64,000 bases of DNA from a virus (Duplodnaviria > Caudoviricetes). Shown here piece after piece: positions 22,893 through 64,000 of this stretch (position 1 is the stretch's first letter; each line of letters starts with the position of its first letter). The notes under the pieces are model-generated. The model was not told where the DNA came from, ran no database searches, and saw only the letters and a list, made by a program, of their open reading frames with translations. The stretch covers positions 1 to 64,000 of IMG/VR virus record IMGVR_UViG_2708742752_000007. One strand, 5' to 3'. The position numbers and the translations under genes were made by a program.

Positions 22893-22901
22893 GAGAGTCA
22901 T

Positions 22902-23102: not shown

Positions 23103-23111
23103 GAAAGTCAC

Positions 23112-27145: not shown

Positions 27146-27155
27146 GGAGAGCCAT

Positions 27156-27485: not shown

Positions 27486-27487
27486 CC

Positions 27488-27832
27488 GTGAGAAAGCTGA
27501 CATTGTTGTTGACCGTGTTTCTATTGACGAGTTGTGTGGTGCCCATCGTCACCCCGGAAGGCTATGGCTTAGCATCGCAGCCCACGCCTATCCCGACTTT
27601 GACGGCGACACCTGAGCCGACTAGTACGCCTGCACCTGTGGTAGACTCAGAAGGTGAATATTATCGGGGTATCTACGATTTATGTCGCTGGCTCATCCAG
27701 CAGACAGGCCACTATGTCGATTGCATGGCCTTTGTAGAACGATCTAATACCAGCGGTTGGTACGAGCAACCATCCAAGGATTGGCAGTGGCCTCTGCCCG
27801 CGCCAACAGTGGCACCAGGTACGTCCCTGTAA
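27488..27832 (+). CDS. predicted lipoprotein with Pro/Thr-rich linker
   Basis: MRK + hydrophobic + LTSC lipobox; PTPIPTLTATPEPTSTPAP. Confidence 0.75.
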   Translation: MRKLTLLLTVFLLTSCVVPIVTPEGYGLASQPTPIPTLTATPEPTSTPAPVVDSEGEYYRGIYDLCRWLIQQTGHYVDCMAFVERSNTSGWYEQPSKDWQWPLPAPTVAPGTSL

Positions 27833-28230
27833 TGCTGCTAACTCTGTACCTTTTATTCAGGCTAGTCATCGGCGGCGTGGTGGATACGCCTATCCAGCCA
27901 TGCCAGTGTGTCGTGGTCGAATACCAGGGCGCGACCGCTCTCAAGTGCGCCGTACCTGACCAGGTGGCCTGCTATCACGAGTGGCGACCAGGCAGCTTGC
28001 TGGTAAATGGGCATAACCCCGGCGTGTTCAGCCGCCTGGATGAAGTCGAAGTCGGGGATGCTATGGTCGTGACCATAGACGGCGTGACGACCACCTACTA
28101 CGTGACGACCAAAGAGGTGGTCAGGCGCGATGATCACCAGCGTTACACCGAGCTGGCTAATGTGCCAGGTGTGCTAATCGTCACCTGTTATGGTGAGCAC
28201 CATAGGCTTTTGGTTAAGGGGGAAATATGA
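27832..28230 (+). CDS. sortase-family transpeptidase
   Basis: GH(N)...FSRLDEVEVGD...YYV...LIVTC...RLLVKG gives a His/Cys/Arg triad; TAATG coupling to the lipoprotein. Confidence 0.8.
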   Translation: MLLTLYLLFRLVIGGVVDTPIQPCQCVVVEYQGATALKCAVPDQVACYHEWRPGSLLVNGHNPGVFSRLDEVEVGDAMVVTIDGVTTTYYVTTKEVVRRDDHQRYTELANVPGVLIVTCYGEHHRLLVKGEI

Positions 28231-29180
28231 AGCTGGCTCATGTAAGTCTTTTCAAGCGGCACCATGGGAATGAGTACCACGCGGGAGGTGTCGAAAAGTT
28301 TGCCTTCTTTTTGAATATGGCCTTCCCGGAGATGAAGTGTTACTCTATCCAGGACTTGCCCATACCCATCCAACCCGGTACACCCGACTACAAGATCGCT
28401 GAGATCCTCAATAACTGGCTTCTGGGCGAGGGGCTGGTAGATGAGAACACCACCGTTATCGGCGATGGTTTTTGGACACTGGGTCTGGAGGGCAAGGTAG
28501 GCAGGTTGATCTCTGTAATTCATGGTGCCTATTTCGGCACTGCATTGGAATATGAAAAGTACCCCAACCCTGAAGAGACGCACGTGGGCGAGTGGGCCTT
28601 GATCCAGGAGGAAGTCTGGAAAGATCCACGGGTCGAGGTTGTGTCGGTCAGCAACCGTTCAGCTTTGGAACTTATGACTGTGTGCGGTATTCCGTCGCAT
28701 GTTATATCTCATGGGCTGCCCCTGGACATCTATAAGCCAGATGGCAAGCCTAAGAGTCGCCTGGTCTTGCACACCTCTGTGAGCTTCAGGAAGGGCCGAG
28801 ATATGATCGAGAAGATCAAAGCCTTCGGCAAGTTCGACATTCAACAACTCGGCTTCGCGCGAAGCGGAGACATGGCAGAGGAAGTAAGACTCTGGAATCG
28901 GGGTGGCATCTTCCTGAACCCAACTAGATTTGAAGGGAACCATTATTCGATACTGGAAGCTCTGGCCTGTGGATTAGTGCCAGTGGCTTACTTGACAGGC
29001 GTCACCTATGACTTTCCCTGCCACGTGGCCGAGACCACAGATGACTTCCACGAACACCGCTTCGTGATGATGCTTGAGAATGCCATGGAGTATTACTCGA
29101 ACTATTTCCCGCGTGAGTGGGCCTGTGAGAACCTGGACTTCGACATATGGGCAGCCAAGTGGAGGGCTTATCTGAAATGA
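28227..29180 (+). CDS. GT4-like (GT-B) glycosyltransferase
   Basis: GGVEKF, RKG, PTRFEGNHYSILEALACGLVPV. Confidence 0.85.
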   Translation: MKLAHVSLFKRHHGNEYHAGGVEKFAFFLNMAFPEMKCYSIQDLPIPIQPGTPDYKIAEILNNWLLGEGLVDENTTVIGDGFWTLGLEGKVGRLISVIHGAYFGTALEYEKYPNPEETHVGEWALIQEEVWKDPRVEVVSVSNRSALELMTVCGIPSHVISHGLPLDIYKPDGKPKSRLVLHTSVSFRKGRDMIEKIKAFGKFDIQQLGFARSGDMAEEVRLWNRGGIFLNPTRFEGNHYSILEALACGLVPVAYLTGVTYDFPCHVAETTDDFHEHRFVMMLENAMEYYSNYFPREWACENLDFDIWAAKWRAYLK

Positions 29181-47500: not shown

Positions 47501-49284
47501 AGAATTGGCAAACTTGGGCTATCGAATTAGCTGGTTTCATGGGCAACGTCTTTGGTTATATTTTGACTGGGTTGGTTGCTATTCCATATTTGATAATCCA
47601 GTTGTCGGGTAAATTCCTGCAACTCATCCAGGGCTTGATCGATTATGCCAGCCAAAATTGGCCTACCTGGGCGGCTGAGTTAGGTACTCATGTAGCATCT
47701 ATCATCAGCAGTGTAGTGACGTTCGTTACCACTACCCTACCAACATGGATAGCCGATCTGTCTGCGAAGTTATCGGAACTTATTACTGGCTTCCTGGCTT
47801 ACGCAGGCGAGAATTGGCAAACCTGGGCCGTTGACCTGGCGGGCTTCGTCGGAAAAGTGTTTGGCTACATTATCATTGGCCTGGTAACTATTCCATACTT
47901 GATAATCCAATTAATAGGTAAATTGGCTGAGCTGATCCAGGGTCTCTTCTCCGGCGCTGACGAGAAAGAGGGCGAATGGGGCACGACACTGGGAAAGACT
48001 ATCGGCAAGGTGTTTGCCGGTGTCGTCACCTGGCTGATCGATAATGGCCCGACTATTGCTTCTGATCTGTTCAACGGCTTCAAGGACGTGATCGCCGCCC
48101 TGTGGACGTTCATAACCGCCACATTACCAGAATGGTCGGTCCAACTGGCAGATTTCATGAGCCAGCTTATGACCGCCTTTGGCAAGGGTATGCTCGAATC
48201 AGCTCCCTGGCTGGCCGATGCCCTAGCAGCCGGGCAGCAATTCGTAGACAACATCAAAGCTGGCATCGAAGCTGCGTGGATAGGCATCGTCACCTGGTTC
48301 GCGGGCAAGGTGCAAGAGCTATTAGCGCCTATCCTGGGAGCCAGAGAAACCATCGAGAATGCCTGGAGTGGCCTAAAGGAAGGCGTAACACAGCCTGTCG
48401 AGGGAGCCAAGAACGCCGTGGTGGGCGCTTTTGGTGGCTTGCAGGAGGGTATCAGCAGCACCGCCGAGAATGCGACTGGCAGCGTGATCGGCTTTTTCGA
48501 CAACTTGCGCAATACGTTGGTCGGCAACTCTATCGTGCCAGAGATGACCACGGCTATCGTCACCAACTTCACCACCATGGACACCACACTATCCGCAGGC
48601 TTGACCACGTTCACCACCTTTGCCACCAGCCTATGGCAACAGTTCACCCAGAATATCCTGATCATGTGGCAGGACATGGTGCAATTCGTGATTGAGCTGG
48701 CCCAGCAGCTAGAAGAAGTCCTGACCGAGATCATCCAGCGTATCGTAGAGTTGTTCAATGCCTGGCGAGAGGCTGTCGATAAAGTTATCGAGGGACTCAA
48801 GGCATTACCGGAGCCGTTAGGAGCCCTGGCCGAGTATATTCCCATCGTCGATCAATTAGCCGACAAATTTAACGATCTGTACAACAAGCTAAAGAATGCC
48901 ACCTCGCAGGCCGAGAAATTAGCCAAGGCACTCGAAAAGGTCAATTCCATGGGCGGCAATATGGCGGTATCTGTCTCCGGGGCAGCGCAGGGTGGCCTAT
49001 GGCGTGTGCCGAGTGTTTCTACCTGGACACTCCATCCCGGCGAGATGGTTTTGCCCGCCGGGGCTGCCGAGGCATTTCGCAGCTTCGCGGGCGGTGGTCT
49101 GCCTGCCATGGGTATGCCTGCCACTGAGTCCAACTCTGGACTCAACAAGCAGTATATCTTCGGACCGGGTGCCTTCCAGGGTGCTTTCCCCGGTGTGCGG
49201 ACTGCCCACGATGCCGAGGGTCTACTGAATCGCCTGGATCAACTGGCTCAGATCGCCGAACTTAAGGGGAGGGTAGTCAGCTAA
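41530..49284 (+). CDS. tape measure protein (2584 aa)
   Basis: Ala/Gly-rich helical protein, TPFELADAIEAF tape motif, Trp-periodic repeats, follows the chaperones. Confidence 0.92.
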   Translation: MAVSQEIFRATLTVETNIVSAIEGLEKLSKKAIETLDSLQKISTAVVKPDLGGLNTISTTIEKATKDIRADFERLRQEVVGKSIIPEMIDAIAKEFDRLPNKTAPEVKKLHQQFEQLKTSVKPIEDAIAGMDASTRKHMEGIVAEALKMKGAFSDDQIKAAMASIGSATAKTGSEVQGTIGQLNKLAEAVRQVYLTQKPPAAKAAEAEIENRAKRAAAEFENLKKIGEKTFADYERQGQKFRQQTALATSELGEAAQRVTAFEQRFRAIGQVAAEGSTGFRAAVANIRGGFQLMAAEGGNFALGLRQAFFGLSGSTNVLGRALDWLGGRHNELSRATGKLEQETLRIDNIMRRFTTGMRDQMDVLKEVGKEEGVQKAALSEIDVQVKRVEKAFKDMNTTIVAGGKPTEQQMARIREEVRILEQSYRQLKVQGIIPAGSATDDMFKQMLKGIETQRVGSNQMIARVIALRKEVEKAEQSEKQSNATSEKRVGIFQRVSIAFSNLFNITRNVTNETKNFNQQLDQTGAKMGVVARTADVAKGAFVGFVGAAAAITGLRYAIDGIGFAIRNLGGKFLEVNNTAQNFGITLTNMLRGSKIEDQAEEVVGGAMDFIKEAVAATPFELADAIEAFQRLIIAGLDPKQWMEPIADAAAIMNKPMDQLIGAFQRLTVGDTGQALMMMRDFGINVNRAAVFVDQATGNLLSYDQAQQAVNMSAEQLAAKGWAKLNLEFSKGGELTTDTATALKILNGYLTQNSTIAGTAASRSLSLQGVMSNLKDSVSNLFIEMGKPIMEKLTGAGSGLLDKINELQPVLNALAANIGVALSGAIDFAINFISNFKENFAGLIEVVQTVISIVASIFAGDWQNAWFLFLDAIDVGLSNAVQFLDSWISNAFTWGWNFVVEIANGVLDSASSVLMEALNSVGEMISSFLAPGSAPEVGPLSTIDEWGAALMDIFGAGVADINDDNINTAMEEMKKLIQASGGQLSDGFYEAFSSIDFAAAIQNARAQLSDLLASFANLDMSKVLGSLKSVDFSFIRDALSPVKDFFKTMGSEGTEPFLKVRDSMAAIVAELNATGEINEEAFAKIGEVLGDQNKEMTKYLRLQLELHSAQRKLQDVQGEVAAAEARGFVPAALKAKLAAAEKDVEDKKEAVDWQKEYVAWQKEGNQLQQEFVGGLDKAAKAMGKAASAAGSAAKAQAKQIETLAEWYAREKALIEEKYRLGVIGEQEYVQALLNLEKQYVDRSLEEGIPAGLDAHVQAIKELELRLEGLKEKTKEAQGQASKGIEMQTPAEILGKFAKNIQEIAQQTGGDFADGFVLAMREGIPRNVPGLMADIWAKILEGFVTIFNNIRNFLAQNVTPQNFPIFAVVAGLFTQLAASPIMNFVTRLAARIAPVIVRLGGLRGILLKLLGVLGRAALLGGIIITIFLNWDKIVAALSPVITSLSTAIKALADEAIAAIIERMGGAEQAAIKFNAAYETMRSIVAGVGEVFNMLITSGFSEIGQAIEGAFKSAVMAMPTQGISGAISTFFTTLISSLSTTNIGQAITNLFTNAVAGIRETILPIFSDVLGGIGTALGGLVPPGVVDTFNQLRQSIAAFFEEGRLGGEIVRLFGDLKELMVALAPIAKALLSVLAALAGLVANSLVAAFQTIIDILPNIEGFFAGLVRIVRGVLDVVSGLATLIQSAWALITGDTEKAQTLFQTAIGQIGSGLGEIFSGITLAVSNAAQAILGFPITFISHFVDNIIAFLPQGSSFSQTLQAIGGAISSLKDILTGALEAIGSGISAIGMVISDFLSGQISFQEAWNQIKTIFASTVDAVSEALAPLGQALLDGILNGVEWLRTNAPIILQTIGAWVTDTLVPGIASFAASLATGFVDLFGKAVEYVGANWPTWLETLNSYAASIIAGVVTFVTTTLPVWASALATKVGELFQAALDYVQTNWPAWSATLNSYVGPIIDGIIIFFTATLPTWITDLITKFGELVQGLLIYVGQNWQTWAIELAGFMGNVFGYILTGLVAIPYLIIQLSGKFLQLIQGLIDYASQNWPTWAAELGTHVASIISSVVTFVTTTLPTWIADLSAKLSELITGFLAYAGENWQTWAVDLAGFVGKVFGYIIIGLVTIPYLIIQLIGKLAELIQGLFSGADEKEGEWGTTLGKTIGKVFAGVVTWLIDNGPTIASDLFNGFKDVIAALWTFITATLPEWSVQLADFMSQLMTAFGKGMLESAPWLADALAAGQQFVDNIKAGIEAAWIGIVTWFAGKVQELLAPILGARETIENAWSGLKEGVTQPVEGAKNAVVGAFGGLQEGISSTAENATGSVIGFFDNLRNTLVGNSIVPEMTTAIVTNFTTMDTTLSAGLTTFTTFATSLWQQFTQNILIMWQDMVQFVIELAQQLEEVLTEIIQRIVELFNAWREAVDKVIEGLKALPEPLGALAEYIPIVDQLADKFNDLYNKLKNATSQAEKLAKALEKVNSMGGNMAVSVSGAAQGGLWRVPSVSTWTLHPGEMVLPAGAAEAFRSFAGGGLPAMGMPATESNSGLNKQYIFGPGAFQGAFPGVRTAHDAEGLLNRLDQLAQIAELKGRVVS

Positions 49285-51908
49285 TGGGTATCGCCGACGC
49301 GACTCTGATACTCCATGCGGAAGGTAGAGCTAGCATCACTTTTGACACGTTGAGCATAGATGGTGCCACGGCAGGCTATTATGTTCCGGCTGAGACGCTG
49401 ATCTTCAACGAAGCCGAGCGGGAGCAGATCGTCTACTCGGAAGGAGCCAATATCGATGGCGGTGAGTATATCACCAGCTTCGCGCCCCTGGTAGATGTCT
49501 CGTTCACGTGTTACTGCTGGGGTGACACTAGGGTGGCTGCCATCCAGCGTGCCCAGGCGCTCAAGTTGGCGGTCGGCAACGAGCACGGTGGGCAATTGCA
49601 ATACATGCCTGCCGACGTAATTACTCGCTCTACCTATTATCACTACGTCAAGAGTCCCATCCCGCCCATGGCCGACGTGACTGACAATACCTGGGACAGT
49701 CGCCTAAAGGCTACGCAGAGCATTGGCAACAAGTACGTGGTGGTCCTGGAAGTCGTGCTCAAGACCATGCCGGTTGCCACCAGCGATCCCGACAACCTGG
49801 TGGCGTTGTCGCTATCTCGCTCGACATTGGATGACCACGTGTACGGGGCAGCCTACAACTATTTCGACATCACCGGCAGCGCCGTCAAGGGCGACCAACC
49901 CGCCTACGTGCGTTTCCGCGCTCGCAACTCGCAGTCAGGCACCAATGAGGAGATCGCCAAGCTGTACCTGACCTCGCGCAGCTCCCTGCTGTCCACACTC
50001 AATTACTACCAGCACGTGTACCAGGCCGAAGATGCTACCAGCCTGACCCCCACGGCGGTATGGTCCACGCCTGCCGATGGTTCACGCTCTGGCTCTGCTT
50101 ACCGGCGCTGTAACCCCGGTGCGGAGTACAACGATGACCAGTTGGGTTTACGCTTCACGCTGTCCAACGAGAGCCACCATCGCGGGCGCTGCACGGTACT
50201 GGGCGTGGTACGGGCCAAGACTGCCTACTGGTCCAGCCAGGTCAAGTACACCATCGCCGGTGAGGTGGTGGCCTATAGCTCAGCCTACAACTATGCCGAG
50301 CACTTCGATAAGTGGTCGATCATGGTTCTGGGCGAGATCGACATGCCTGCCATGATCATCAGTGGGCTGGAGACTATCGCGCCTGCCCTGGAAGTGTACT
50401 TTACTCGCAGCGATGGCTCAGAGGGAGACTACGTGGACCTGGACTTTATCATGCTGGCTTTCAACGACGAGTGCCTGGCTTTGTTTAGCCACGCGGACGG
50501 CTTTACCAACGACCAGAAGCTACTCTTCGAGCGACTGGCAATGGGCAAGAGCCTGGCGCACTTGATCAACCAATCTACGTCGGCCTTTGAGGACGAGGTA
50601 GATGCGCACTATGGCTCGGAGGTGTTGCCAGTTCCGCCTGGCTTCGACACACGGGTAGGTGTGCTGTTCCAGCGGATCGATCCAGTCGTATTCGAGGATG
50701 ACTTCAGCAGCTACGATGGTGTCAGCTTTTTGCGTCTGGCACAGATGAATCTGGACGAGTCGTGGACTGAAGATCCAAGTGATGGCACTGTGGAAGTTGT
50801 GCTCGATTCAGTCGTATATCGCGTCGAGGGTGATGCATCTCTAAAGTTGATACCTGGCCCCATAACCCAACTTGCCAGTTCCTACCTGTCCATTACGCCC
50901 ATCAACCTGGGCAGTGGATCGCTTTTCACAGATGGTGACTTTCTGTGTTGGTTTGTTGATTGTCTGAATGTTTCCAAGTTATCCGATGCCATCATTGCAC
51001 TGGGTGAGTTAGGGGCAGTAGGTCCATACATTAGTAGTGCCCTGGGCGATTTTTCACTGGCAGCAGGCTACAATTTCAAGTATGTGCTTAAGACTGTTAT
51101 CCGGGGCTATAGCCTGGGTATGAATGCCACATCATTGGTGGGTATTCAGTATGCAGCTACCGATGGCTCCGGGCCTGTCTTTTATACCGACTATCTCAGA
51201 ATCGAAAAAGCTGATCCAGATGATGCCACCCGACCCAATGCCACAGGTGCCAATTGGAACTTCCAGCCCAACGATGGCAGGTGGGCTATTACTTATGACG
51301 GACCAGGCGGAGATAACGAGGCAGTTCTGGCTTGTTTTGAACAGGCGGCTGTTGGGGTTGCCACGGCTGCCCGCGACATAACTACACCCGATGACGTGGC
51401 TGGATTCTGCAAAATTGCATTCAGAAATAGCACGTCTCATTCAGCCGGTATCGCCTTCAGGTTAAGCGACCAGACATTGGGTAGCGAGGATGGCTACGTC
51501 TTCATCCTGTATGGCTATGGCTACATTCGCCTGATGAAGTACGTAGCTGGTACGCCTACCTACCTGGCAGAGGTCGGGCTGGCTACCGGCAATCTATCGC
51601 TCGATACATGGTATTGGCTGGGTTTCAAGGCAGATGGCAACTCGCTCAAGGCATATTTGAGCCTGACCGAGCCGGTGGGCGACAGCAATTCCGAGAAATT
51701 AGCCAACCTACTATCCGAATCTAACCTGGTCGTCAGTGTGACAGATGCCACTTTCAGTTCTGGATCTGTGGGGGCCATGTCACACAATTCTGGCACACGC
51801 TTCGGGGAATTTTATGTCGAGCACGTCGAGGATCTACATATACCAGCCGACCAGGTAACAGTCGAGGCGGCGGCATTATTCAGGGGTGTTTACCCCTTCC
51901 CGGACTAA
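49284..51908 (+). CDS. evolved distal tail protein (Dit) with inserted carbohydrate-binding/lectin-like domains
   Basis: directly after TMP; jelly-roll-like segments (YVDLDFIML, FYTDYLRI, GIAFR...WYWL...G.VG). Confidence 0.65.
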   Translation: MGIADATLILHAEGRASITFDTLSIDGATAGYYVPAETLIFNEAEREQIVYSEGANIDGGEYITSFAPLVDVSFTCYCWGDTRVAAIQRAQALKLAVGNEHGGQLQYMPADVITRSTYYHYVKSPIPPMADVTDNTWDSRLKATQSIGNKYVVVLEVVLKTMPVATSDPDNLVALSLSRSTLDDHVYGAAYNYFDITGSAVKGDQPAYVRFRARNSQSGTNEEIAKLYLTSRSSLLSTLNYYQHVYQAEDATSLTPTAVWSTPADGSRSGSAYRRCNPGAEYNDDQLGLRFTLSNESHHRGRCTVLGVVRAKTAYWSSQVKYTIAGEVVAYSSAYNYAEHFDKWSIMVLGEIDMPAMIISGLETIAPALEVYFTRSDGSEGDYVDLDFIMLAFNDECLALFSHADGFTNDQKLLFERLAMGKSLAHLINQSTSAFEDEVDAHYGSEVLPVPPGFDTRVGVLFQRIDPVVFEDDFSSYDGVSFLRLAQMNLDESWTEDPSDGTVEVVLDSVVYRVEGDASLKLIPGPITQLASSYLSITPINLGSGSLFTDGDFLCWFVDCLNVSKLSDAIIALGELGAVGPYISSALGDFSLAAGYNFKYVLKTVIRGYSLGMNATSLVGIQYAATDGSGPVFYTDYLRIEKADPDDATRPNATGANWNFQPNDGRWAITYDGPGGDNEAVLACFEQAAVGVATAARDITTPDDVAGFCKIAFRNSTSHSAGIAFRLSDQTLGSEDGYVFILYGYGYIRLMKYVAGTPTYLAEVGLATGNLSLDTWYWLGFKADGNSLKAYLSLTEPVGDSNSEKLANLLSESNLVVSVTDATFSSGSVGAMSHNSGTRFGEFYVEHVEDLHIPADQVTVEAAALFRGVYPFPD

Positions 51909-51919
51909 GGAGAGCCAAC

Positions 51920-53182
51920 TTGAAACGAATAGCGATTATGTCAACCTTCTTCGAGGCCACCAGCGGCTACTCGCTCATCGGCGTAGCCGAGACGCAAATC
52001 CGCATGCTGCTGGATCATGGTTACGAGCCGGTGGTGCTCGTGCAGGATAATTTTACGTCACCTCCATCTCCCACACTCTGGTCAGAAACCATGATAGATT
52101 TGCGTAAATGCCTGCCCTTCATGCACTTACGCACCGACGTGGCCCCCGATTTTGAAGAGAGGGTTAGCAAGATCGAAGCAGCCCTGGCAGAGCACTTGGC
52201 TGATGTCAATGTCTGCATCACGCACGATATTATGCTTCAGGACTTCTACAAGGAGCACAACGCAGCCGTGCGGCGCTATGCCAAAAGTAGACCCGACTTA
52301 CTTTGGCTTCATTGGCTGCACAGTTGCCCCTCACCCAGCAATGAGGCCCAATACCCCAACGCCCTGCGCTATATCTCGCCACCAGGCTTTCTCGTGTATC
52401 CTAACTCGACCGATCTAAGCCGTGTGTGCCAGACCTACCATCTGGGCGGGCAAGAGTGGCGTGCCAAAGCCTGCCGCGCCGGGCACGCCATCGATCCCTT
52501 GCGAGTGTGGCATTACGACCCTTTGACAGTCGATCTGGCGACCAGGGCCAGATTGCTGTCGGGTGAGGTGGTAGCGGTCTATCCAGCCAGATTGGATCGT
52601 GGAAAACAGCCAGAGAAGATCATCTATCTCATGGCAGGTGTCAAAGAGGCTGGCTACGAGCCACGCCTGCTGGTCATCGACTGGCAGAGCGCCGGGCAGC
52701 GTTTCCAGCAGTACATCGATGAGTTATTGGCCTTGAGTGAGAGCCTGGGTCTGGGCGATTGTGTTAGTTTTACCTCACGCCTGGATGACCGCTGTAGCCA
52801 GGGCGTGCCACGTCACGTGGTTGTGGAGCTGATGGATCTGTCCAATACGTACATTCATCCCAGTCGGGTGGAAACCTATAGCTTGGTAGTCCACGAAGCC
52901 GCTCTGCGCGGTAAGCTGCTATGTCTCAACCATGACCTGCCACCCATGCGTGAGCTATTTGGGGATAACAGCATCTTTTTCGACTTCGAGAGTGACCGCT
53001 TCAGCCGCAGGTACGAGCCGGATGAGCGTATCTTCTGGCAGGGTGAGGCCAAACGTCTGATCGCCGAGTTGAAACAGAACCGGGCTTTGTGGGCACAGAC
53101 GGTGGCCCGCAGAGAGTGGACACCCGAAGCCATGTGGAAAGAATTCGAGACGCTATTTTTCCTGGAGTCAGTCGGTGAGTGA
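51920..53182 (+). CDS. GT4-like (GT-B) glycosyltransferase in the tail module
   Basis: YPARLDRGKQPE, HPSRVETYSLVVHEA. Confidence 0.82.
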   Translation: MKRIAIMSTFFEATSGYSLIGVAETQIRMLLDHGYEPVVLVQDNFTSPPSPTLWSETMIDLRKCLPFMHLRTDVAPDFEERVSKIEAALAEHLADVNVCITHDIMLQDFYKEHNAAVRRYAKSRPDLLWLHWLHSCPSPSNEAQYPNALRYISPPGFLVYPNSTDLSRVCQTYHLGGQEWRAKACRAGHAIDPLRVWHYDPLTVDLATRARLLSGEVVAVYPARLDRGKQPEKIIYLMAGVKEAGYEPRLLVIDWQSAGQRFQQYIDELLALSESLGLGDCVSFTSRLDDRCSQGVPRHVVVELMDLSNTYIHPSRVETYSLVVHEAALRGKLLCLNHDLPPMRELFGDNSIFFDFESDRFSRRYEPDERIFWQGEAKRLIAELKQNRALWAQTVARREWTPEAMWKEFETLFFLESVGE

Positions 53183-53756
53183 TTATCACAGTCTGATGCG
53201 TAATTGGTCAGATACCTGGTTTATGGGTGTGCAGTGTAGTCAGTACGCTGTAGACTTCGTGTTGTGGGAACGCCTGCTGAACCATAACCCTGACGTGGAT
53301 CGCATCATCGAGCTGGGTACACTGTGGGGCGGTTTCAGCCTTTTCTTGTTTTTACAAGCCCTACAGCGCAATATGACATTTATCACCTTCGATGATGGAT
53401 CATATGCAGTTACACAATGCAAGACTGATGGTCCACTGGCTGTTGATACGCCACTTGGACAAAGACTCGATCTGACTGATCACTGTGTACATGGCAATGT
53501 ATTCGATGATTGCTACGAGATAGTGACTTCATATTTGCAAGGCCCAGGCCGCTGTGTCTTGTTCTGTGACGACGGCAATAAGCCCAAAGAGTTTGCTACC
53601 TTCGCGCCACTTGCCAAGCCAGGCGACATCATCGTGGTGCACGATTGGGGCACCGAGATACTGGAGCAGCACATCGACTATGATTTGGTGGACGAGATCA
53701 TGGCAGAGGATTGCCATAGCCTGGGCAGCCTGAGCCATTTCTTCATCAGGAGGTAA
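53175..53756 (+). CDS. methyltransferase-like protein (CmcI/Methyltransf_24-like)
   Basis: IIELGTLWGG, FCDDG, KPGDIIVVHD. Confidence 0.72.
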   Translation: MSDYHSLMRNWSDTWFMGVQCSQYAVDFVLWERLLNHNPDVDRIIELGTLWGGFSLFLFLQALQRNMTFITFDDGSYAVTQCKTDGPLAVDTPLGQRLDLTDHCVHGNVFDDCYEIVTSYLQGPGRCVLFCDDGNKPKEFATFAPLAKPGDIIVVHDWGTEILEQHIDYDLVDEIMAEDCHSLGSLSHFFIRR

Positions 53757-53757
53757 T

Positions 53758-54012
53758 ATGGCAGGTAGAAACATCAACGTCTGGATCGAGAACTGGACCA
53801 ACGATGGCGTGAACGTTCAGGTGCCGCGTTATTCGGTTAGCGTGCGCATCGAGTGGACTAAAGCGGACGGCACGCCTGGTAGCCACGAGAATGCCTACAG
53901 GTTTCCCAACGCACTGCAAAACGTGCCGGTGGCACGTCTGCGGCGCTACATGGAGGAGATCATTTTGCGTGAGGTACGGATTCAATTGGGCATAGACGAG
54001 GCGCAGGAATGA
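53758..54012 (+). CDS. small hypothetical protein
   Basis: AGGAGGT SD. Confidence 0.7.
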   Translation: MAGRNINVWIENWTNDGVNVQVPRYSVSVRIEWTKADGTPGSHENAYRFPNALQNVPVARLRRYMEEIILREVRIQLGIDEAQE

Positions 54013-55385
54013 CTACCTATTATGTCGGCTCCGGTGGCAATGACGGCAATGACGGCCTTACATGGGGCGCGAGAAAATTGACCCTCAACGGGGTCGAAGA
54101 CATTCCCGTCGTAGCAGGCGATACCGTCTACGTCGCGCCGGGCGTCTATCGAGAACTACTGACCTGTGACGTATCTGGCTCGGCGGGTAATCCTATCACT
54201 TATATCGGTGATGTGACGGGCGAGCATACTGATGGCATAGGTGGCATCGTGCGTGTCACTGGCAGTGACAACGATACGAGCACTGCCAGGAATTATGGCA
54301 TCACCGGCACTGGGCGGAATTTCCGCACTTTTCGCGGCTTCCGTATCGATGCATGCACGCTGGACGGCATTATTCTCGACGGCACGAACTGGATCGTCGA
54401 GGATTGCGCCATATTCGACACCACTCGGTATGGCATTTACGTAAACGGGGCCAACCAGGCCAGTAACACATTCCGGCGCTGTTGCATGTTCGGCTGCAAA
54501 CAGACGGGCATCCTATTTTATCATAGTGCCGACGTAGCCGGGACGAGCCAACTGGTCGAGAATTGCTTAATTCTCGATTCCGACTACGGCCTGCACAGCC
54601 TGATCGAAGTTTGGAACATCGATGGAATCACTATCAAACATTGCCTGCTGAGCGGCGGCATCGGCGCGGGTGTCCGCGTCCAGGCCAACACAGGCAACCC
54701 CATGGTCACTGTACGCAATTCGATGATCCAAAACTGCTGGCGAGGATTCAACGCCGTGGCCGCAGGCGACATCGACGAGAATTATAATAATCTGTACGGC
54801 AACAACGCGAATCGGACTAACACGAACATCGGTGCCAACTCGACGACGTACCCGCCCCTGCTGGCAGCGCCACTACTATTGGACGGCATCAGGCTGCCGT
54901 GGTGGTTCGGTAGGCTCTCGGAATGGTCAGCCATGCGGCAATTGACAGGGGAAAGCATGTCAGACGACGACCTGTCCGGCATCACGCGCCCGGCAACGGA
55001 CAGTAAGAAATCGTGGGGAGCAGTGCAGTTCCAACCCATGGTGCGTGAGGCAACCACGGTGCGTACCGGGGCAGCCAGCCTGGAACTGTCCGACGCGGGC
55101 GAGCACCAGATCATAGTGCCGGTATCCAATGAGAGCACGACCATCAGTGTCTATTGCTACCGCGAGGCGGACTATACTGGGACCAACCCACGTATGGTCA
55201 TCAAGCAGCCTGGGCAATCTGATCGGACTACGACCGACGCTGGTGCGGCCTCGCAATGGAATCAACTGACAGACACCTTCACCCCGGCAGCCATCCCGCC
55301 CTACGTGGTGGTATGCCTGCAAAGTCTGAACACAGCAGCAGCTACGGATTTCAAGGTCTATTTCGATGACTTGGTGGTTTCATAA
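54009..55385 (+). CDS. right-handed beta-helix (pectin-lyase-like) protein with C-terminal CBM-like domain
   Basis: TYYV...GNDGNDG...AGDTVYVAPGVYRE, repeated VENC/GI motifs, YFDDLVV. Confidence 0.78.
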   Translation: MTTYYVGSGGNDGNDGLTWGARKLTLNGVEDIPVVAGDTVYVAPGVYRELLTCDVSGSAGNPITYIGDVTGEHTDGIGGIVRVTGSDNDTSTARNYGITGTGRNFRTFRGFRIDACTLDGIILDGTNWIVEDCAIFDTTRYGIYVNGANQASNTFRRCCMFGCKQTGILFYHSADVAGTSQLVENCLILDSDYGLHSLIEVWNIDGITIKHCLLSGGIGAGVRVQANTGNPMVTVRNSMIQNCWRGFNAVAAGDIDENYNNLYGNNANRTNTNIGANSTTYPPLLAAPLLLDGIRLPWWFGRLSEWSAMRQLTGESMSDDDLSGITRPATDSKKSWGAVQFQPMVREATTVRTGAASLELSDAGEHQIIVPVSNESTTISVYCYREADYTGTNPRMVIKQPGQSDRTTTDAGAASQWNQLTDTFTPAAIPPYVVVCLQSLNTAAATDFKVYFDDLVVS

Positions 55386-56885
55386 GTGGCAAACCCACAA
55401 AACCCAGGCACCTTCGATTTCTGGATCACCGACCGGCTGGCCTTCCAAAATGCGCCGCCCCGGTCGGGTGATACAGGCACGTTCGACAACTGGGTTACAG
55501 ACAGGGTTTATTTCCAGGATTATGTCGAAGCTGCTGGCGAGGCATCCAGCAGCAGCTCGTCCAGCTCTTCGTCATCCAGCTCAAGTTCTTCCTCTAGTTC
55601 TAGTTCATCGAGTACTAGCTCGTCCAGTTCTTCATCATCCAGCTCCAGCAGCAGCTCGTCGTCCAGTTCTAGCTCATCTTCATCGAGTAGCTCAAGTACG
55701 TCGAGCAGCAGCAGTTCATCGAGTTCAAGTTCTAGCTCGTCGAGCACTAGTTCGTCTTCATCCAGTTCAAGCTCATCTTCGAGTAGTAGTAGCTCATCCA
55801 GTTCGTCGTCTTCGTCTAGCAGTAGCTCAAGCTCCTCAACGAGTTCATCTTCTAGTTCGAGCACAAGTTCCTCGTCTAGTAGTTCTAGTTCTTCATCTTC
55901 GTCCAGCAGCTCAAGTTCATCGTCGAGCTCGACTAGTAGCTCATCTTCATCGTCGAGCAGTAGTAGTTCGTCGTCGTCTAGCTCCAGTAGTTCCAGCTCA
56001 TCATCTAGCAGCAGTTCAAGTTCCAGCTCGTCGTCTAGCTCTAGCTCGACAAGCTCTAGCAGCTCTTCGAGTTCAAGCAGTAGCACTTCATCGTCGTCAT
56101 CTAGCTCGACTAGTAGTTCTAGTTCGAGTTCATCCAGCAGCTCTTCGTCGAGTAGCAGCAGCTCAAGTAGCTCAAGCTCGACTACCAGCTCATCGTCTAG
56201 CTCAAGCAGTTCCTCAAGTTCATCGTCTAGCAGTTCCAGTTCATCTTCATCCAGCAGCAGCTCGTCATCCTCAAGCTCGACCAGTAGCTCTAGCAGCACA
56301 TCTGAATCATCAAGTTCGTCGAGCAGCTCAAGTTCGAGTTCATCGAGTTCGAGCAGCAGCAGTTCCAGCTCATCATCCAGCTCCAGTTCGTCGAGCAGTA
56401 GCTCTACATCGTCCAGTAGTTCCAGCTCGTCATCTAGCTCAAGCAGTAGTAGTTCTAGCAGTAGTTCATCTTCGAGTTCGTCCATCTCAAGTAGCAGTTC
56501 GACTTCTATATCCAGCAGTTCCAGCTCGTCCAGCAGTAGCTCGTCATCGAGTAGCTCTTCAAGCTCATCTAGCAGTACATCTGTATCGTCGTCCAGCAGC
56601 AGCTCAAGCTCAGGCAGTAGTAGCTCGTCTTCGTCCAGCTCGTCTTGGTCATCCAGTAGTTCGAGTTCATCCAGCAGTATATCCAGCGTATCCTCGTCTT
56701 CGAGCAGCAGCTCGACTTCAATTTCAAGTTCAAGCAGCTCGATTAGTATCCAATACCAGCCTGATGCACTGGACTTCAACGTGACTATCTCACGCCTGAG
56801 TCTAGAATTCGACGTGGAGTGTGCGGATACACTGGACTTCGACGTAGAGTATACAGATACGCTGGACTTCAATGTAGAGAGGTAA
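55386..56885 (+). CDS. poly-serine protein (~400-aa Ser tract) with short repeated terminal motifs
   Basis: abuts flanking genes in operon; all six Ser codons used; duplicated GTFD.W.TDR N-terminus and LDFxVE C-terminal repeats. Confidence 0.85.
   Translation: MANPQNPGTFDFWITDRLAFQNAPPRSGDTGTFDNWVTDRVYFQDYVEAAGEASSSSSSSSSSSSSSSSSSSSSSSTSSSSSSSSSSSSSSSSSSSSSSSSSSSTSSSSSSSSSSSSSSSTSSSSSSSSSSSSSSSSSSSSSSSSSSSSSSTSSSSSSSTSSSSSSSSSSSSSSSSSSSSSSTSSSSSSSSSSSSSSSSSSSSSSSSSSSSSSSSSSSSSSTSSSSSSSSSSSTSSSSSSSTSSSSSSSSSSSSSSSSSSSSSSSTTSSSSSSSSSSSSSSSSSSSSSSSSSSSSSSSTSSSSSTSESSSSSSSSSSSSSSSSSSSSSSSSSSSSSSSSSTSSSSSSSSSSSSSSSSSSSSSSSSSISSSSSTSISSSSSSSSSSSSSSSSSSSSSSTSVSSSSSSSSSGSSSSSSSSSSWSSSSSSSSSSISSVSSSSSSSSTSISSSSSSISIQYQPDALDFNVTISRLSLEFDVECADTLDFDVEYTDTLDFNVER
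55545..56747 (+). repeat. poly-Ser coding tract, 401 codons
   Basis: mixed TCN/AGY codons with sparse Thr/Ile. Confidence 0.95.
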
Positions 56886-56889
56886 TTTT

Positions 56890-57204
56890 ATGGAAGCACA
56901 CCACAATGATATTGGTACGATCCTACGCCTGACGGTGCGCCGTCAGGATGGCAACGTGGAAAGCGGTCTGGGCTTGGCTACCAATCTATACATCTACCTG
57001 ACGCCGCCCAGTGGCGTAGATAAGACCAAGGCAGCCGTATTAAGCAGCAATGGATCTGACGGGAAAATGCAATACGTCACCGTGAATGGCGATCTGGATG
57101 AGACAGGCTCCTGGCAGATCCAGGGCTACATCAAGTTCAGCAATAGCCAGATATTCAAGACCAGCGTGCGCCAGTTCAACGTGCTGGCGAATTTGGTGCC
57201 GTAG
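56890..57204 (+). CDS. BppU N-terminal-like Ig-fold baseplate protein
   Basis: NDIGTILRLTV...DGKMQY...GDLDETGSWQIQGYI...FNV. Confidence 0.7.
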   Translation: MEAHHNDIGTILRLTVRRQDGNVESGLGLATNLYIYLTPPSGVDKTKAAVLSSNGSDGKMQYVTVNGDLDETGSWQIQGYIKFSNSQIFKTSVRQFNVLANLVP

Positions 57205-59646: not shown

Positions 59647-62600
59647 ATGCCCCCCAGTGTAACCGCCGTATTTGACGCCAACAGCGAAGGAACCCTTGTT
59701 GCCAGCCTGACTATTTCGGGCGTGACCACCTCTGGCAGCAACCGCCAATTGTTGGTCGGGGTAGCTATCCGGTCTGATTCGTCTACGATCAGTGGCGTGA
59801 CGCGGGGAGCCGAGACTTTTACCAGCCTGGGCAATGCCGCCAGCGGCTCGCTGTTGCGGGTGTATCTATTCCGCTGTGACAGTGAGCCAGCCACGGCGGC
59901 CACGGACATAGTGTGTACCGTCAGCGGTGCAGATCGCCCGGTAGCCGCCAGCGCTGTGGCATTACAAGATGTACACCAGACCACGCCGTATGGCACTGCC
60001 GCTACTGCCGCTACTGCCAGCGACGTAGGTCTATCTGTATCGCCTGGCAGCGCCCTGGGCGACCTGATCATAGACGTGCTGACCACCCATGCCAATGCGA
60101 CTGCGCATGCCACCACTCAATCTGGACAGAATATCGAGGTCAGCAACCCGGCAGGCAGCGATGCGGCTACACGTATGGACGAGTACCAGTCCAGCCGCGC
60201 CGGTGCAGCAGGCAATACCACCATGGGCTGGTCGTGGACTACCGCCACAGAAGGCGGCCTGGTAGGTGTGGCAGTCAAGCCATCTGAGGCATCCTCCAGC
60301 AGCAGCTCGTCCAGCTCATCTTCGACTTCGAGTAGCTCGTCTTCGTCCAGCTCGTCCTCCAGCTCGTCTACTACTTCGTCATCATCATCGTCGCTGCCGC
60401 CCTCCGCTTACCCGGTCATCATCGACCACGAGGAAGGTGATTTCACCGATTACGACTCGACTGTAACCGACGGCGGGCGATTGCAGGTCACAGCCGCCGC
60501 TGCTATGGTCAGTCTATACGGACTGTCGGTGCCCACTGATGGCGACACGGATGCTATTTATGGACACAAGGACATGCCCACCCTGTCCACCGGGCTGGTG
60601 CGCTGCCGTTTTTACTTCGACCCTAACAGCACAGCCACCATCGGCGAGTTCTCGGATATACCCATCCTGGAGCTTAACAGTGCAGCCGGGCGGGTGGCGT
60701 CGGTCACATACCGCGTCACCAGCTCAGCAACTCGCAGTGTGCGTGCCACTATCGTGAACGACGCGGGCACGCCCAGCCTGACCGCCCTGATCACCATCAC
60801 CGACGCGCAGCATTATATCGAGATCAGGCTGGAACGGGCCGCTGATTCCGGTAGCAGCGACGGGCGTGTCGATATTTGGGTAGACGGTGCCGGGCTACAA
60901 AGCGTGACGGGCATCGACAACTACGACAGGTTCGACGACCTGGATAGCCTGCGGGCGGGCGCACTGGCGGATCAGGGTGGCGACCCGCTGAGCGGCACCC
61001 TGTACATCGACGAGATCGTGGTGTCTGACGAAGATGTCGAGATAGGGCCGGTTTATGACTGGCAGGTATCAGCCGATTCAGATGATTGTTACGACACTGA
61101 CTCGGCTGGATTCTACCTGGGTGGCTACGAAGGCTTAATTTACCTGGGGAACTCTATCTCTGGCGGGAATGACGCTGGTGGTTTCAGATTCCAGAATATA
61201 ACCATACCCAATAGCTCAACCATCAATTCAGCAACATTGCAAGTCTACTCAACAGGCAGCATAGTCGGTACACCAGAAACTAAAATCGTAGCCGAAGCTG
61301 CTGACAATCCTGGACCTTGGGCCGGTAGCACACACGAGCCCATCGGCATCAGTGAAACCACAGCCAAAGTAGATTGGGATATAGCTTCATGGACAAGTGG
61401 CTGGCGTATTTCGCCAGACATCGCAACTGTTATTCAGGAGATTGTCAATCGTGCTGGTTGGTCGAGCGGCAACGCTATATGCCTGGTAGTGCGTAACGAT
61501 GGTTCCAGTAGTGAGGAGTGCGAATTATATGACTACACTGGCAATAATGCACTGACTGCCAGATTAAGTATTAGTTATACGGAGCCCAGCAGCTCGTCGT
61601 CAAGCTCATCTTCGACCAGCAGCACATCGTCCAGTACGAGTTCGTCGTCGAGTAGCAGTTCATCCAGTTCGAGTTCATCTAGCAGCTCGTCGTCGAGCAG
61701 CAGCAGCTCAAGCTCGTCGAGTTCGTCAAGTACAAGTAGCAGCTCGTCGAGCAGTTCCAGCTCGTCGTCATCCAGTTCTTCATCGTCGAGTAGTAGCAGC
61801 TCGTCCAGCTCGTCTACTACTACTTCTTCTTCGTCGTCCATACCGCCATGCGTCAGCCCGGTCTACAAAGACGATGCCAACCTGCAAGGCTTGTGGCTGT
61901 TGGAGGAGGCCAGCGGTACGCGCTATGACTACACGCCCAACAACAACGATTTAACCGACGCCGCTTCGGTGGCCCAATCTGCTGACCATAAGGAAGGCAG
62001 CTACAGCGCCGATTTCGAGGCTGGCGACGTAGATTACCTGGAGATCGCCGACGCAGCCCAGGTCGGGCTGGACATCACGGGCAATCTGACCATCTGCTGC
62101 TGGTTCAAGGCGGAGAGTTTCCCACAAGACAGGCAAATCCCGGTTTCCAAGATGGGTGCATCGAGTCAATTCGGTTATGGATTATATATTGACCGCAATA
62201 TCACAGATCGCCTGTTGGTAGCTCAACTTTCCGGCGATGGCAGCAGTACCAGCTCGGCCATAGGAGCAACCAGCCTCAGTGCGGAGACGTGGCATCACGT
62301 CGCCATGGTTTACAACGGCACAGATATTCGCATCTACCTCAACGGCGTGCTGGACGAGAACGGCGCGTCAAACCCACTGAGTTATTCGTCCGGTATTTAC
62401 AATAACAATGCCGCCTTCCAGATCGGGCGTAGCGTGGGCGATGGCGACAGCTATACCTTTGACGGCCTGATCGACGAGGTGGCTGTCTTTGACCGGGCCT
62501 TGTCGGCTGACGAGATCATGTGCATCTATCTGAACGGTATCGAAGACCCGATACCCAGTAGTAGTTCATCGTCGTCTTCGAGTAGCAGCTCATCTTCATC

Positions 62601-64000
62601 GTCAAGCAGCTCGTCTACTACCAGCAGCTCGTCTTCGTCCAGCTCCAGCTCGTCCTCCAGCTCGTCGTCAAGCTCGTCTTCGACCAGCAGCACATCGTCC
62701 AGTACGAGTTCGTCGTCCAGTAGCAGCTCAAGCTCGTCGAGTTCGTCCAGTTCCAGTTCGTCCAGCAGCACGTCATCGAGTTCAAGTTCAAGCAGTAGCT
62801 CGTCGTCGTCCAGCAGTTCAAGCTCAAGCAGCAGCTCGTCGTCGAGCAGCAGCAGCTCCAGCTCTTCGTCGTCATCCAGCTCCAGTAGTTCTAGCTCATC
62901 ATCCTCCAGCTCATCTACAAGTTCTTCATCTTCGAGCAGTAGCTCGTCGTCTACCAGTAGCTCATCTTCGTCCACGTCCACACAGACCAGCTCCAGCTCG
63001 ACTTCGAGTAGCTCGTCGAGCTCTACGTCCATCTCGTCGAGCTCGTCCAGCACCACATCCAGCAGCTCGTCCAGCACCAGCAGCTCGACTTCGAGCAGTA
63101 GCTCGTCCAGCTCGCAATCGTCTTCGTCCACATCCAGCTCAACTTCCAGCTCGTCGAGTAGCATATCCAGCTCGTCGTCGTCAAGCAGTACGTCCATCTC
63201 CGTGCCACCCGTGGCCCACCCGGTCCACATCGCCCGACCCATCCTGGAAATCTACGATCACGCGGGTAAGCAGTTCCGCATGCACGACGCCACTGCCATC
63301 AAGTACAGCAACCACTACTCGGAAGAGGGCTCCGGCTACGGTTACTTAGCCTTCAACCTCAAGCGCAAGGTGGGCTACGACTACCAGGACATCGGCTTCG
63401 GCTACCGCGCCATACTGCGCAAGGGCATCAACATGGTCCTGTTCGACGGCGTGATCGTCAAGATCGACGAGACACACGGCGGCGAGGGCGACCAGATCGT
63501 GGTCGGCTGTGTGGGCTGGAATAGCTTGCTGGCCTTCGACGTGAAGAACTTCATATTGAGTGATAGCCGCCTCAACCGCTGGCTGGGCTCACAGGTGGTA
63601 TCGGGCTCGTTCACGCCCGACAAATTCGACGCCAACAACTCGTGGACGGTAGACGACGTGAGCTACAGCGGGCTACAATTCAAGCCACGCCGAGGCAGCG
63701 ACTATATAGAGGATGACTACACCTACTTGCGCTACACTTTCGAGTTCGGCGAGACGGTAGCCAAATTAAGCTACGACTGGGAAACGGCCTTTCCCAACTC
63801 GTGGCCGGGCAAGTTCGAGGTGCTCGATGCGAATGGTACGGTGCTGCACTCGGAGACTGTCACCGGCTCAGGCAGCAAGACGCTTTCCATCTCCGGCGGC
63901 AATCACGTCGAAATCCGCATGTACGTGACGCAGGCAGGCGAGAGCACCGCCGAGGATAACACGGTGTACATCAGGTTGCAGAACGTGATAGTCTATTCCA
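59647..64000 (+). CDS. multidomain tail-tip protein: adhesin-like domains, LamG, three poly-Ser linkers and a Tal/hub-like domain (partial, at least 1451 aa)
   Basis: ATG immediately after the TAA of the GT gene; frame is open to the window end (absent from ORF track); LamG motif WHHVAMVYNG...IYLNG...GLIDEVAVFDRALS. Confidence 0.85.
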   Translation, partial: MPPSVTAVFDANSEGTLVASLTISGVTTSGSNRQLLVGVAIRSDSSTISGVTRGAETFTSLGNAASGSLLRVYLFRCDSEPATAATDIVCTVSGADRPVAASAVALQDVHQTTPYGTAATAATASDVGLSVSPGSALGDLIIDVLTTHANATAHATTQSGQNIEVSNPAGSDAATRMDEYQSSRAGAAGNTTMGWSWTTATEGGLVGVAVKPSEASSSSSSSSSSSTSSSSSSSSSSSSSSTTSSSSSSLPPSAYPVIIDHEEGDFTDYDSTVTDGGRLQVTAAAAMVSLYGLSVPTDGDTDAIYGHKDMPTLSTGLVRCRFYFDPNSTATIGEFSDIPILELNSAAGRVASVTYRVTSSATRSVRATIVNDAGTPSLTALITITDAQHYIEIRLERAADSGSSDGRVDIWVDGAGLQSVTGIDNYDRFDDLDSLRAGALADQGGDPLSGTLYIDEIVVSDEDVEIGPVYDWQVSADSDDCYDTDSAGFYLGGYEGLIYLGNSISGGNDAGGFRFQNITIPNSSTINSATLQVYSTGSIVGTPETKIVAEAADNPGPWAGSTHEPIGISETTAKVDWDIASWTSGWRISPDIATVIQEIVNRAGWSSGNAICLVVRNDGSSSEECELYDYTGNNALTARLSISYTEPSSSSSSSSSTSSTSSSTSSSSSSSSSSSSSSSSSSSSSSSSSSSSSSSTSSSSSSSSSSSSSSSSSSSSSSSSSSSTTTSSSSSIPPCVSPVYKDDANLQGLWLLEEASGTRYDYTPNNNDLTDAASVAQSADHKEGSYSADFEAGDVDYLEIADAAQVGLDITGNLTICCWFKAESFPQDRQIPVSKMGASSQFGYGLYIDRNITDRLLVAQLSGDGSSTSSAIGATSLSAETWHHVAMVYNGTDIRIYLNGVLDENGASNPLSYSSGIYNNNAAFQIGRSVGDGDSYTFDGLIDEVAVFDRALSADEIMCIYLNGIEDPIPSSSSSSSSSSSSSSSSSSSSTTSSSSSSSSSSSSSSSSSSSSTSSTSSSTSSSSSSSSSSSSSSSSSSSSSTSSSSSSSSSSSSSSSSSSSSSSSSSSSSSSSSSSSSSSSSSSSSSSSSTSSSSSSSSSSSTSSSSSSTSTQTSSSSTSSSSSSSTSISSSSSSTTSSSSSSTSSSTSSSSSSSSQSSSSTSSSTSSSSSSISSSSSSSSTSISVPPVAHPVHIARPILEIYDHAGKQFRMHDATAIKYSNHYSEEGSGYGYLAFNLKRKVGYDYQDIGFGYRAILRKGINMVLFDGVIVKIDETHGGEGDQIVVGCVGWNSLLAFDVKNFILSDSRLNRWLGSQVVSGSFTPDKFDANNSWTVDDVSYSGLQFKPRRGSDYIEDDYTYLRYTFEFGETVAKLSYDWETAFPNSWPGKFEVLDANGTVLHSETVTGSGSKTLSISGGNHVEIRMYVTQAGESTAEDNTVYIRLQNVIVYS
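60292..60393 (+). repeat. poly-Ser linker 1 (34 codons)
   Basis: direct translation. Confidence 0.9.
61588..61839 (+). repeat. poly-Ser linker 2 (84 codons)
   Basis: direct translation. Confidence 0.9.
62557..63201 (+). repeat. poly-Ser linker 3 (215 codons)
   Basis: direct translation. Confidence 0.9.

Follow-up and report, generated by a model that had tools for sequence, protein, structure and literature searches.

What does a phage do with a protein that is three-quarters serine? This question is raised by a gene in a 64,000-nucleotide stretch of viral DNA (IMG/VR record IMGVR_UViG_2708742752_000007; hereafter the window), which constitutes the first 64 kb of C63, a 94-kb contig in a 3.86-Mb assembly of 169 contigs. 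The gene, referred to in the following as the polyserine gene, encodes a protein of 499 amino acids (aa), 76% of which are serines, and consists of a short N-terminal head, a long polyserine tract and a short C-terminal tail (Table 1). We propose, with moderate confidence, that this is a modular appendage protein from a phage with a long tail, in which a docking head would place a disordered, glycosylated serine spacer on a beta-helix protein encoded next to it. The proposal is carried by the head, which belongs to a family that is found beside, and occasionally within, homologs of this beta-helix protein.

The head carries two GTFDxW(I/V)TDRxxFQ units, GTFDFWITDRLAFQ (aa 8-21) and GTFDNWVTDRVYFQ (aa 31-44). 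The 399-aa tract is composed of 373 serines (93.5%), 17 threonines, four isoleucines, two valines and one residue each of glutamate, glycine and tryptophan. In the tail, the motifs LDFNV, LEFDV, LDFDV and LDFNV follow each other in this order, with the final copies making up a 30-nucleotide (nt) repeat. An initial annotation of the window, made from the sequence alone, had claimed the same succession of two head repeats, serine tract and four-unit tail, and all of these are present in the translation; it had given 401 aa for the tract and 45 aa for the tail, which differs from our 399 and 47 aa in the placement of the borders only. It was likewise correct in stating that a signal peptide and a catalytic domain are absent: Pfam finds no domain in the protein, including the 53 and 47 aa that flank the tract, and a direct reading of the translation reveals no hydrophobic signal-like segment at the N-terminus MANPQNPGTFDFW.

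An artifact, be it a wrong frame, a wrong strand or the mis-assembly of a simple repeat, could be suspected on two grounds, as three frames are open across the tract and some low-depth contigs have joints within it, but we regard this explanation as exceedingly improbable. All six serine codons are used throughout the tract, in proportions roughly as in the window's other genes, and no long DNA periodicity was found. A sequence made of AGY and TCN codons leaves no room for stops in the +2 frame or in one of the reverse frames, so the additional open frames are forced. The reverse frame, which is rich in Leu, Glu and Asp (L/E/D), also identifies the frame under selection: an Asp-Leu dipeptide in it would place AGR (Arg) in the serine frame, and as 'DL' occurs 0 times against 34.8 expected, the serine identity is evidently conserved; a Leu preceding another Leu is, in turn, always encoded by CTR. 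By these codon statistics, selection acts on the serine frame. Relatives of the protein confirm the GTG start: they begin with MANPQ, and their initial Met aligns at the same position. Furthermore, matching DNA from two studies is found among the Logan contigs, which are independent assemblies of public sequencing runs: a 1098-nt contig from run X1 matches positions 55445-56542 with 0 differences, and four pieces from another study (X3) span both tract borders, again with 0 differences. The tract is no assembly artifact, and the joints, whose sides are shorter than 30 nt and unreliable, were disregarded.

The first relatives of the head come from two contigs. The IMG/VR contig L003 encodes an 83-aa counterpart of the 84-aa protein that precedes the beta-helix gene in the window and a beta-helix protein (52% identity), followed by a 556-aa protein with a head (43% identity), in which ~500 aa of 20-residue repeats take the place of the serines in the window protein; on the metagenome contig L009, the head is present as an 82-aa protein. 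A profile built from these two heads and that of the window was searched against 1.84 billion cluster representatives and yielded 123 representatives at E<=1e-3, 52 of them at E<=1e-10. A word-indexed search with head aa 1-56 among proteins of 274-874 aa found nothing, so that the family came to light only by exhaustive profile search. Its members are mostly small (median 74 aa), with 85 of the 123 representatives being no longer than 100 aa and 15 exceeding 250 aa. Their consensus reads MANPxDxGTFDxWITDRxxF....PKSGxTGDFDxWITDRxxFxxYVEAA and is followed by a short variable end, which is often basic; the defining module thus comprises ~50 aa with two tandem ~23-aa units of the form G-[TD]-F-D-x-W-[IL]-T-D-R-x-x-F and ends in Y-V-E-A-A. 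Against a hidden Markov model (HMM) of 42 members, the window head scores 97.9 bits and has all the invariant or nearly invariant residues (F10, F20, T30, G31 and R40). Four candidates (P0064, P0081, P0109 and P0117), in which a GTFDFWVTE-like motif occurs once per ~90-aa repeat, were left out as chance look-alikes.

Searches of Pfam and PHROGs gave no match for any of the 42 members. The head profile found no relative in the PDB, where a sequence search returned a chance match only (E=1.8), and the ESM Atlas offered nothing usable for the head. AlphaFold2, run on the head alone with 42 sequences, predicts two short helices over the FDxWITDR motifs at a predicted local distance difference test score (pLDDT) of 58.7 and a predicted template modeling score (pTM) of 0.18. 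The head is accordingly not predicted as an autonomous domain, which fits a peptide that would fold on binding or oligomerization.

Beyond the head, the family members carry variable cargo. There may be nothing, 20-aa repeats (L003, P0005), LamG-like or other globular domains (P0010, P0014, P0053), His-rich repeats (P0059) or, in P0067, a 919-aa fiber-like protein. In P0063, P0106 and P0125, the head is internal, with an N-terminal globular domain before and a C-terminal fiber after it. The polyserine tract of the window protein stands where its relatives have ordinary fiber repeats. Serine or threonine runs of more than seven residues occur in none of the other 122 representatives. In the L003 protein (L003:9470-11140), the repeats of ~20 residues are of the type VSDSVTISEAVKLLLTSFI, and the protein ends in a basic Gly/Met/Phe-rich tail that resembles the one of P0051, a protein described below.

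The head gene is linked to the gene of the beta-helix protein by position, by co-occurrence and by fusion. In the window, the TAA of the beta-helix gene (55383-55385) is directly followed by the GTG of the polyserine gene (55386), in the same frame, and the direct-downstream arrangement is found in 10 other loci. Among the beta-helix-first loci, the head gene comes directly after the beta-helix gene in L003, L009, L010, L012 and L013; in L060, it precedes it. In the head-first loci (L064, L068, L069 and L070/71), the gene immediately upstream always encodes a beta-helix homolog, with 43-50% identity. Where the sequence of a beta-helix-first locus reaches far enough downstream, a head accompanies 9 of the 20 beta-helix proteins that keep the C-terminal ~115 aa, compared with 0 of the 23 that lack them (Fisher p=3e-4, a value inflated by relatedness). 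Finally, the head is fused to the C-terminus of the beta-helix protein in at least three natural proteins, namely P0095, a full-length fusion of 525 aa, P0051 (L065), a fragment of another, and L016:5998-7971, and weak head remnants are fused to the same end in L014 and L015.

P0095 and P0051 align residue for residue across the TAA-GTG junction of the window, and the junction of the L016 fusion aligns with it as well. The underlying alignment (A8) comprises true fusions only, as MAFFT misplaced short heads when these were mixed with beta-helix proteins (alignments A6 and A7, discarded). Given that the fusions align across an in-frame junction, the loss of a single stop codon suffices to yield a fused protein. 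Readthrough of this TAA was considered and set aside: in L003, L009 and L064, the two genes are in different frames, which makes programmed readthrough unlikely as a general mechanism.

Some related loci carry other genes and no head gene. In L018 and L020-L024, the beta-helix gene is followed by that of a second, longer beta-helix paralog (517-533 aa). L008 and L037, where beta-helix homologs are present and the head gene is absent, encode small proteins with repeated YWPD/YWP motifs after fiber-like genes (L008:4839-5021; L037:7704-7922 and 9052-9837). These may represent a different short aromatic 'plug' motif with an analogous role.

The upstream neighbor is indeed the beta-helix protein that the initial annotation took it to be, both by its match to PF13229 and by its predicted fold. 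It is composed of a right-handed beta-helix (aa ~1-280), a linker and a beta-sandwich that resembles carbohydrate-binding modules (CBMs; aa ~340-458). In the AlphaFold2 model of the fusion P0095, built with 20 aligned sequences, the helix (aa 1-280; pLDDT 85-92) and the sandwich (aa 340-455) are confidently predicted, and the linker poorly. With Foldseek, the helix is matched to the phage tailspike depolymerases KP32gp38, K2-2 TSP and CBA120 TSP4 as well as to PL6/PL9 lyases (E 1e-5 to 1e-7), and the sandwich to CBM16-type modules; sequence profiles weakly agree with these assignments. The protein has no N-terminal anchor domain and starts directly at the helix cap. According to the models, it resembles a depolymerase or tailspike and would be a putative enzyme. 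Docking of the head onto this protein, as claimed in the initial annotation, has strong, if indirect, support from gene order, from the dependence on the C-terminal domain and from the fusions, but none from AlphaFold.

The reading that we favor starts from the finding that aa 1-50 of the polyserine protein belong to a widespread, unannotated family built from two ~23-aa FDxW(I/L)TDR units, most members of which stand alone as proteins of ~70 aa. The head would be a small docking peptide that takes on its fold only when bound and that attaches its cargo at or beside the distal, C-terminal end of the beta-helix protein, in a manner likened to that of small adhesin or assembly proteins, which are encoded after a fiber gene and sit on the fiber tip. 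In the window phage, this cargo is the 399-aa tract, whose serines are kept by selection and which is the same type of linker as those between the domains of a neighboring 1717-aa protein. The tract would act as a disordered hydrophilic spacer with a contour length of ~144 nm; as an unmodified coil, it would measure between a few nm and tens of nm across, with a hydrodynamic radius of ~7 nm by standard scaling. The glycosyltransferases (GTs) of the phage itself would probably O-glycosylate it in the cytoplasm, which would turn it into a mucin-like leash or brush at the tip of the tail. As for the four LDFxV units at the C-terminus, they might tentatively be seen as a small strand-repeat cap or as a second docking element.

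This reading is placed in context by the organization of the contig. C63 is phage-like along its whole length, with genes for the large terminase subunit, the portal and the major head protein on the + strand and early-type genes on the - strand at both ends. After the tape measure gene, the operon continues with the genes for an 874-aa protein, a GT4-type glycosyltransferase, a CmcI-like methyltransferase, an 84-aa protein, the 458-aa beta-helix protein, the polyserine protein, a 104-aa protein, a GT2-GT2-GT1 fusion and the 1717-aa modular protein. Three of these genes form a conserved cassette that consists of the 84-aa protein, the beta-helix/CBM protein and the head with its cargo. The 84-aa gene is kept even in related loci without a head gene; its product matches no Pfam or PHROG family and might assist the beta-helix protein as its chaperone or adaptor.

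Table 1. Features of the window discussed in the text, with positions counted from its first nucleotide.
Feature	Coordinates	Strand	Remarks
GT2 + two GT4-type stretches, second glycosyltransferase fusion, 1064 aa	29668-32862 (considered together with 22314-29180)		between portal and head genes
Tape measure protein, 2584 aa	41530..49284	+	puts the polyserine gene in the tail-tip part of the late operon of a long-tailed phage
874-aa protein	49284-51908		
GT4-type glycosyltransferase (51920-53182) and CmcI-like methyltransferase (53175-53756)	51920..53756	+	
84-aa protein	53758..54012	+	directly upstream of the beta-helix gene; conserved in 29 related loci
Beta-helix protein, candidate partner of the head, 458 aa	54009..55385	+	Pfam PF13229; AlphaFold2 of fusion P0095; Foldseek
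Polyserine gene (head, polyserine tract, tail), 499 codons + TAA	55386..56885	+	reproduced in independent contigs
Head, aa 1-53	55386..55544	+	units at 55407-55448 and 55476-55517; profile search, alignments A3/A4
L/E/D-rich antisense open reading frame, 450 aa	55520..56872	-	not a gene; automatic by-product of the serine codon set
Polyserine tract, aa 54-452	55545..56741	+	all six serine codons interspersed
Tail, aa 453-499	56742..56882	+	L(D/E)F(N/D)V recurs four times at ~10-aa intervals; 30-nt repeat (2.4 copies)
104-aa protein	56890..57204	+	'BppU-like' partner proposed in the initial annotation; not conserved with the module
GT2-GT2-GT1 fusion glycosyltransferase, 812 aa	57208..59646	+	
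1717-aa modular protein	59647..64000	+	starts in the window, ends at contig position 64800

The 1717-aa protein offers a parallel for the tract: polyserine linkers, detected as runs of 34, 76, 141 and 54 aa, lie between its globular domains, one of which is LamG/ConA-like. Within the whole assembly, polyserine runs occur on C63 only, in this gene and in the polyserine gene. The 399-aa tract is hence one of five, which are spread over two genes of a GT-rich module. The last ~500 aa of the 1717-aa protein have no PHROG match, and in its gene a 113-nt block (61590-61702) recurs at 62658-62770 with 85% identity. A second long L/E/D-rich antisense reading frame lies opposite serine codons at 62526-63242 (-); it is likewise forced by these codons and not for annotation.

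With the second GT fusion located among the late genes, the late region of the phage contains at least four GT genes. Judged by this gene neighborhood only, O-glycosylation of the tract by the flanking phage GTs is plausible. In NCBIfam, the flanking GTs show generic GT2 matches far below the cut-offs; the GT4 has no match, and neither GtfA nor GtfB was found.

How else could the locus be read? The initial annotation had proposed a tether with two bound ends, whose head binds the beta-helix protein and whose LDFxV tail binds the 104-aa protein, giving a non-covalent fiber between neighbors. The head half of this idea is in line with synteny and fusions, a repetitive tail could serve as a binding element, and the 104-aa gene begins only 4 nt after the polyserine gene. 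However, this gene has no homolog in any of ~65 related loci, where unrelated genes follow the head gene, and a scan of viral contigs with the 104-aa protein found no relative. Nor could its 'BppU-like Ig' label be verified: a BppU or Ig signature was not detected, no Pfam match is better than E=0.04, and those obtained are apparently spurious. The tail, for its part, has no homologs in a word-indexed search with aa 450-499 among proteins of 274-874 aa, so that only one of the two terminal motifs for which the initial annotation suggested a search, that of the head, turned up in a family. The proposed docking on the 104-aa protein is therefore not upheld, and we consider the tether as a whole distinctly unlikely. 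If the tail has a partner, its sequence weakly points elsewhere: the head HMM aligns tail aa 481-496 (DTLDFDVEYTDTLDF) to the second head unit (dTGdFdrwitdRiyf) with 8.0 bits. Should the tail units indeed be degenerate head units, the protein might be a bivalent leash that cross-links two beta-helix proteins, or forms a loop on one trimer, via its 399-aa spacer. We deem this very improbable, given that the signal is weak and comes from a single test, in which 2 of 2000 composition-preserving shuffles scored equally well, that the Trp and Arg of the motif are absent from the tail, and that the ends of other long family members consist of short repeats of different kinds, some of them strand-like, such as FRDTR/FRDKR in P0030 and P0125.

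Several points weigh against the reading that we favor, and two further alternatives relate to them. That the head binds the beta-helix protein is deduced from comparative evidence; AlphaFold2 gives no fold for the head alone and no docking in the P0095 fusion, where the head region has a pLDDT <50, and so lends no support either way. A third component of the virion could be what the head binds instead. The beta-helix protein has no recognizable virion-anchor domain, and its presence in the virion is deduced from gene position. In one alternative, which we think unlikely, the head would anchor to another part of the virion (baseplate, Dit or tail tube), the beta-helix protein would reach the virion by way of the head, fused to it or through a separate contact, and the polyserine protein would be a second, independent passenger at the same site. 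A beta-helix protein that begins at its helix cap would suit such a role, and the internal heads of P0063, P0106 and P0125 are no less compatible with a connector or anchor than with a tip-binder. On the other hand, the model would not call for the head gene to adjoin the beta-helix gene so strictly or to depend on the C-terminal domain of its product, and no candidate receptor for the head was identified. As to the tract, the lack of polyserine in every other family representative means that it could have expanded in a runaway manner in this lineage alone and have little function. In its strongest form, this would be a largely non-adaptive, tolerated low-complexity insertion into a head protein of ~70 aa, the size of most family members; the tract would have no specific role, or the protein would not be part of the virion, acting for example as a GT acceptor or decoy within the cell. 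We give this little credence, since a 1.2-kb tract with scrambled codons, only 6.5% non-serine residues (mostly Thr), no frameshifts and an identical sequence in two studies argues for purifying selection, and since the neighboring gene uses polyserine four times as a domain linker. Glycosylation, finally, is weakened by the observations that no known family of protein O-glycosyltransferases is matched by any of the GTs and that L003 has a GT4-GT2-GT2 fusion beside its module even though its cargo contains no polyserine; the association with GTs is therefore not specific to the serine tract. The weakness of the likeness between tail and head likewise counts against a second docking element.

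If our preferred reading of a head-docked, glycosylated serine spacer is true, the phage would have a tail-module protein of which homopolymeric serine makes up 80%, attached through a 50-residue plug. The receptor-binding apparatus of phages is usually described in terms of folded fibers and spikes, whereas this appendage would be built from disorder and, probably, sugar. It is of relevance to the ways in which phages of sediment and groundwater bacteria locate their hosts or mask themselves from them. In practical terms, the head family provides a short, conserved and previously unannotated marker for the three-gene cassette, which helps to recognize variable tail-tip cargo in metagenomes, and the head and the beta-helix/CBM protein form a defined candidate pair for protein-protein docking. 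A bolder generalization, which is possible and to our minds improbable, is that the head is a portable plug by which, in many uncultured sediment and groundwater phages, exchangeable cargo is loaded on a tailspike-type depolymerase at its CBM-like tip. In the window phage, this cargo would be a glycosylated 399-residue leash with degenerate copies of the plug at its far end, which could cross-link spikes or form a mucin-like brush at the tail tip; it would amount to a disordered homopolymeric virion appendage without any folded domain.

A literature search found no description of polyserine phage proteins, and the parts of the protein are best compared with known systems one by one. Small proteins encoded right after a fiber or spike gene, such as the T2-type gp38 adhesin and Tfa of Mu, P2 and lambda, sit on the distal tip of that fiber or spike. 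The head gene likewise lies immediately downstream of a gene of the receptor-binding type, the attachment proposed here is C-terminal, and the distal parts vary. By contrast, the head bears no sequence relation to these proteins, in that it matches no Pfam or PHROG family, and the cargo in the window would be a disordered homopolymer instead of a receptor-binding domain. Dockerins, which bind cohesins, are made of two duplicated ~22-aa segments, each with a loop and a helix. The head resembles them in layout only, with two tandem ~23-aa duplicates that are each predicted to form a short helix, and with a presumed role in plugging in cargo. It differs from them in that it has no canonical Ca-binding loop and that no cohesin-like partner was identified; a dockerin profile matched none of the 42 heads at E<=0.1.

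For the tract, the serine-rich repeat proteins (SRRPs) of Gram-positive bacteria, such as GspB and Fap1, come to mind, which go together with GtfA/GtfB and an accessory Sec system (PMC7948813). The likeness lies in a very long serine-rich region beside several GTs and in a working model of cytoplasmic O-glycosylation before assembly. Unlike SRRPs, however, the window protein has no signal peptide, LPXTG motif or central binding region, its tract is single and homopolymeric instead of consisting of two regions of dipeptide repeats (S-A/V/T/E), and no match to GtfA/GtfB or SecA2/SecY2 lies near its gene. An identification as an SRRP was rejected for these reasons. Phage GTs encoded in a structural operon are thought, or have been shown, to glycosylate virion proteins. 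In mycobacteriophages, the acceptors are reportedly short C-terminal stretches of capsid and tail-tube subunits (Freeman et al., 2023, on virion glycosylation); in the window, the acceptor would be a dedicated 399-aa serine tract on an appendage, and glycosylation is suggested here by genes alone.

The nearest known device are the polyserine linkers (PSLs) of modular carbohydrate-active enzymes, which Howard et al. in 2004 are said to have described in Saccharophagus degradans and Cellvibrio japonicus. The publication on the S. degradans genome lists such linkers between modules, among them PSL(58) and PSL(25) (PMC2386152). As in these proteins, nearly pure serine runs (373 of 399 residues in the window tract) would act as flexible spacers in polysaccharide-handling proteins, and the 1717-aa neighbor, with its linkers between LamG/CBM-like domains, fits this description exactly. 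The polyserine protein departs from it in that its tract is flanked by a 53-aa peptide and a 47-aa repeat instead of folded modules, in that a direct reading finds neither signal peptide nor lipobox, and in that it is encoded by a phage, within a tail module. New in comparison with all of these systems are the family to which the head belongs, the tie between its genes and those of the beta-helix/CBM protein, and the fusions between the two; as far as the sequences suggest, a polyserine linker would here have become the whole body of a phage appendage, mounted on a new docking-type module.

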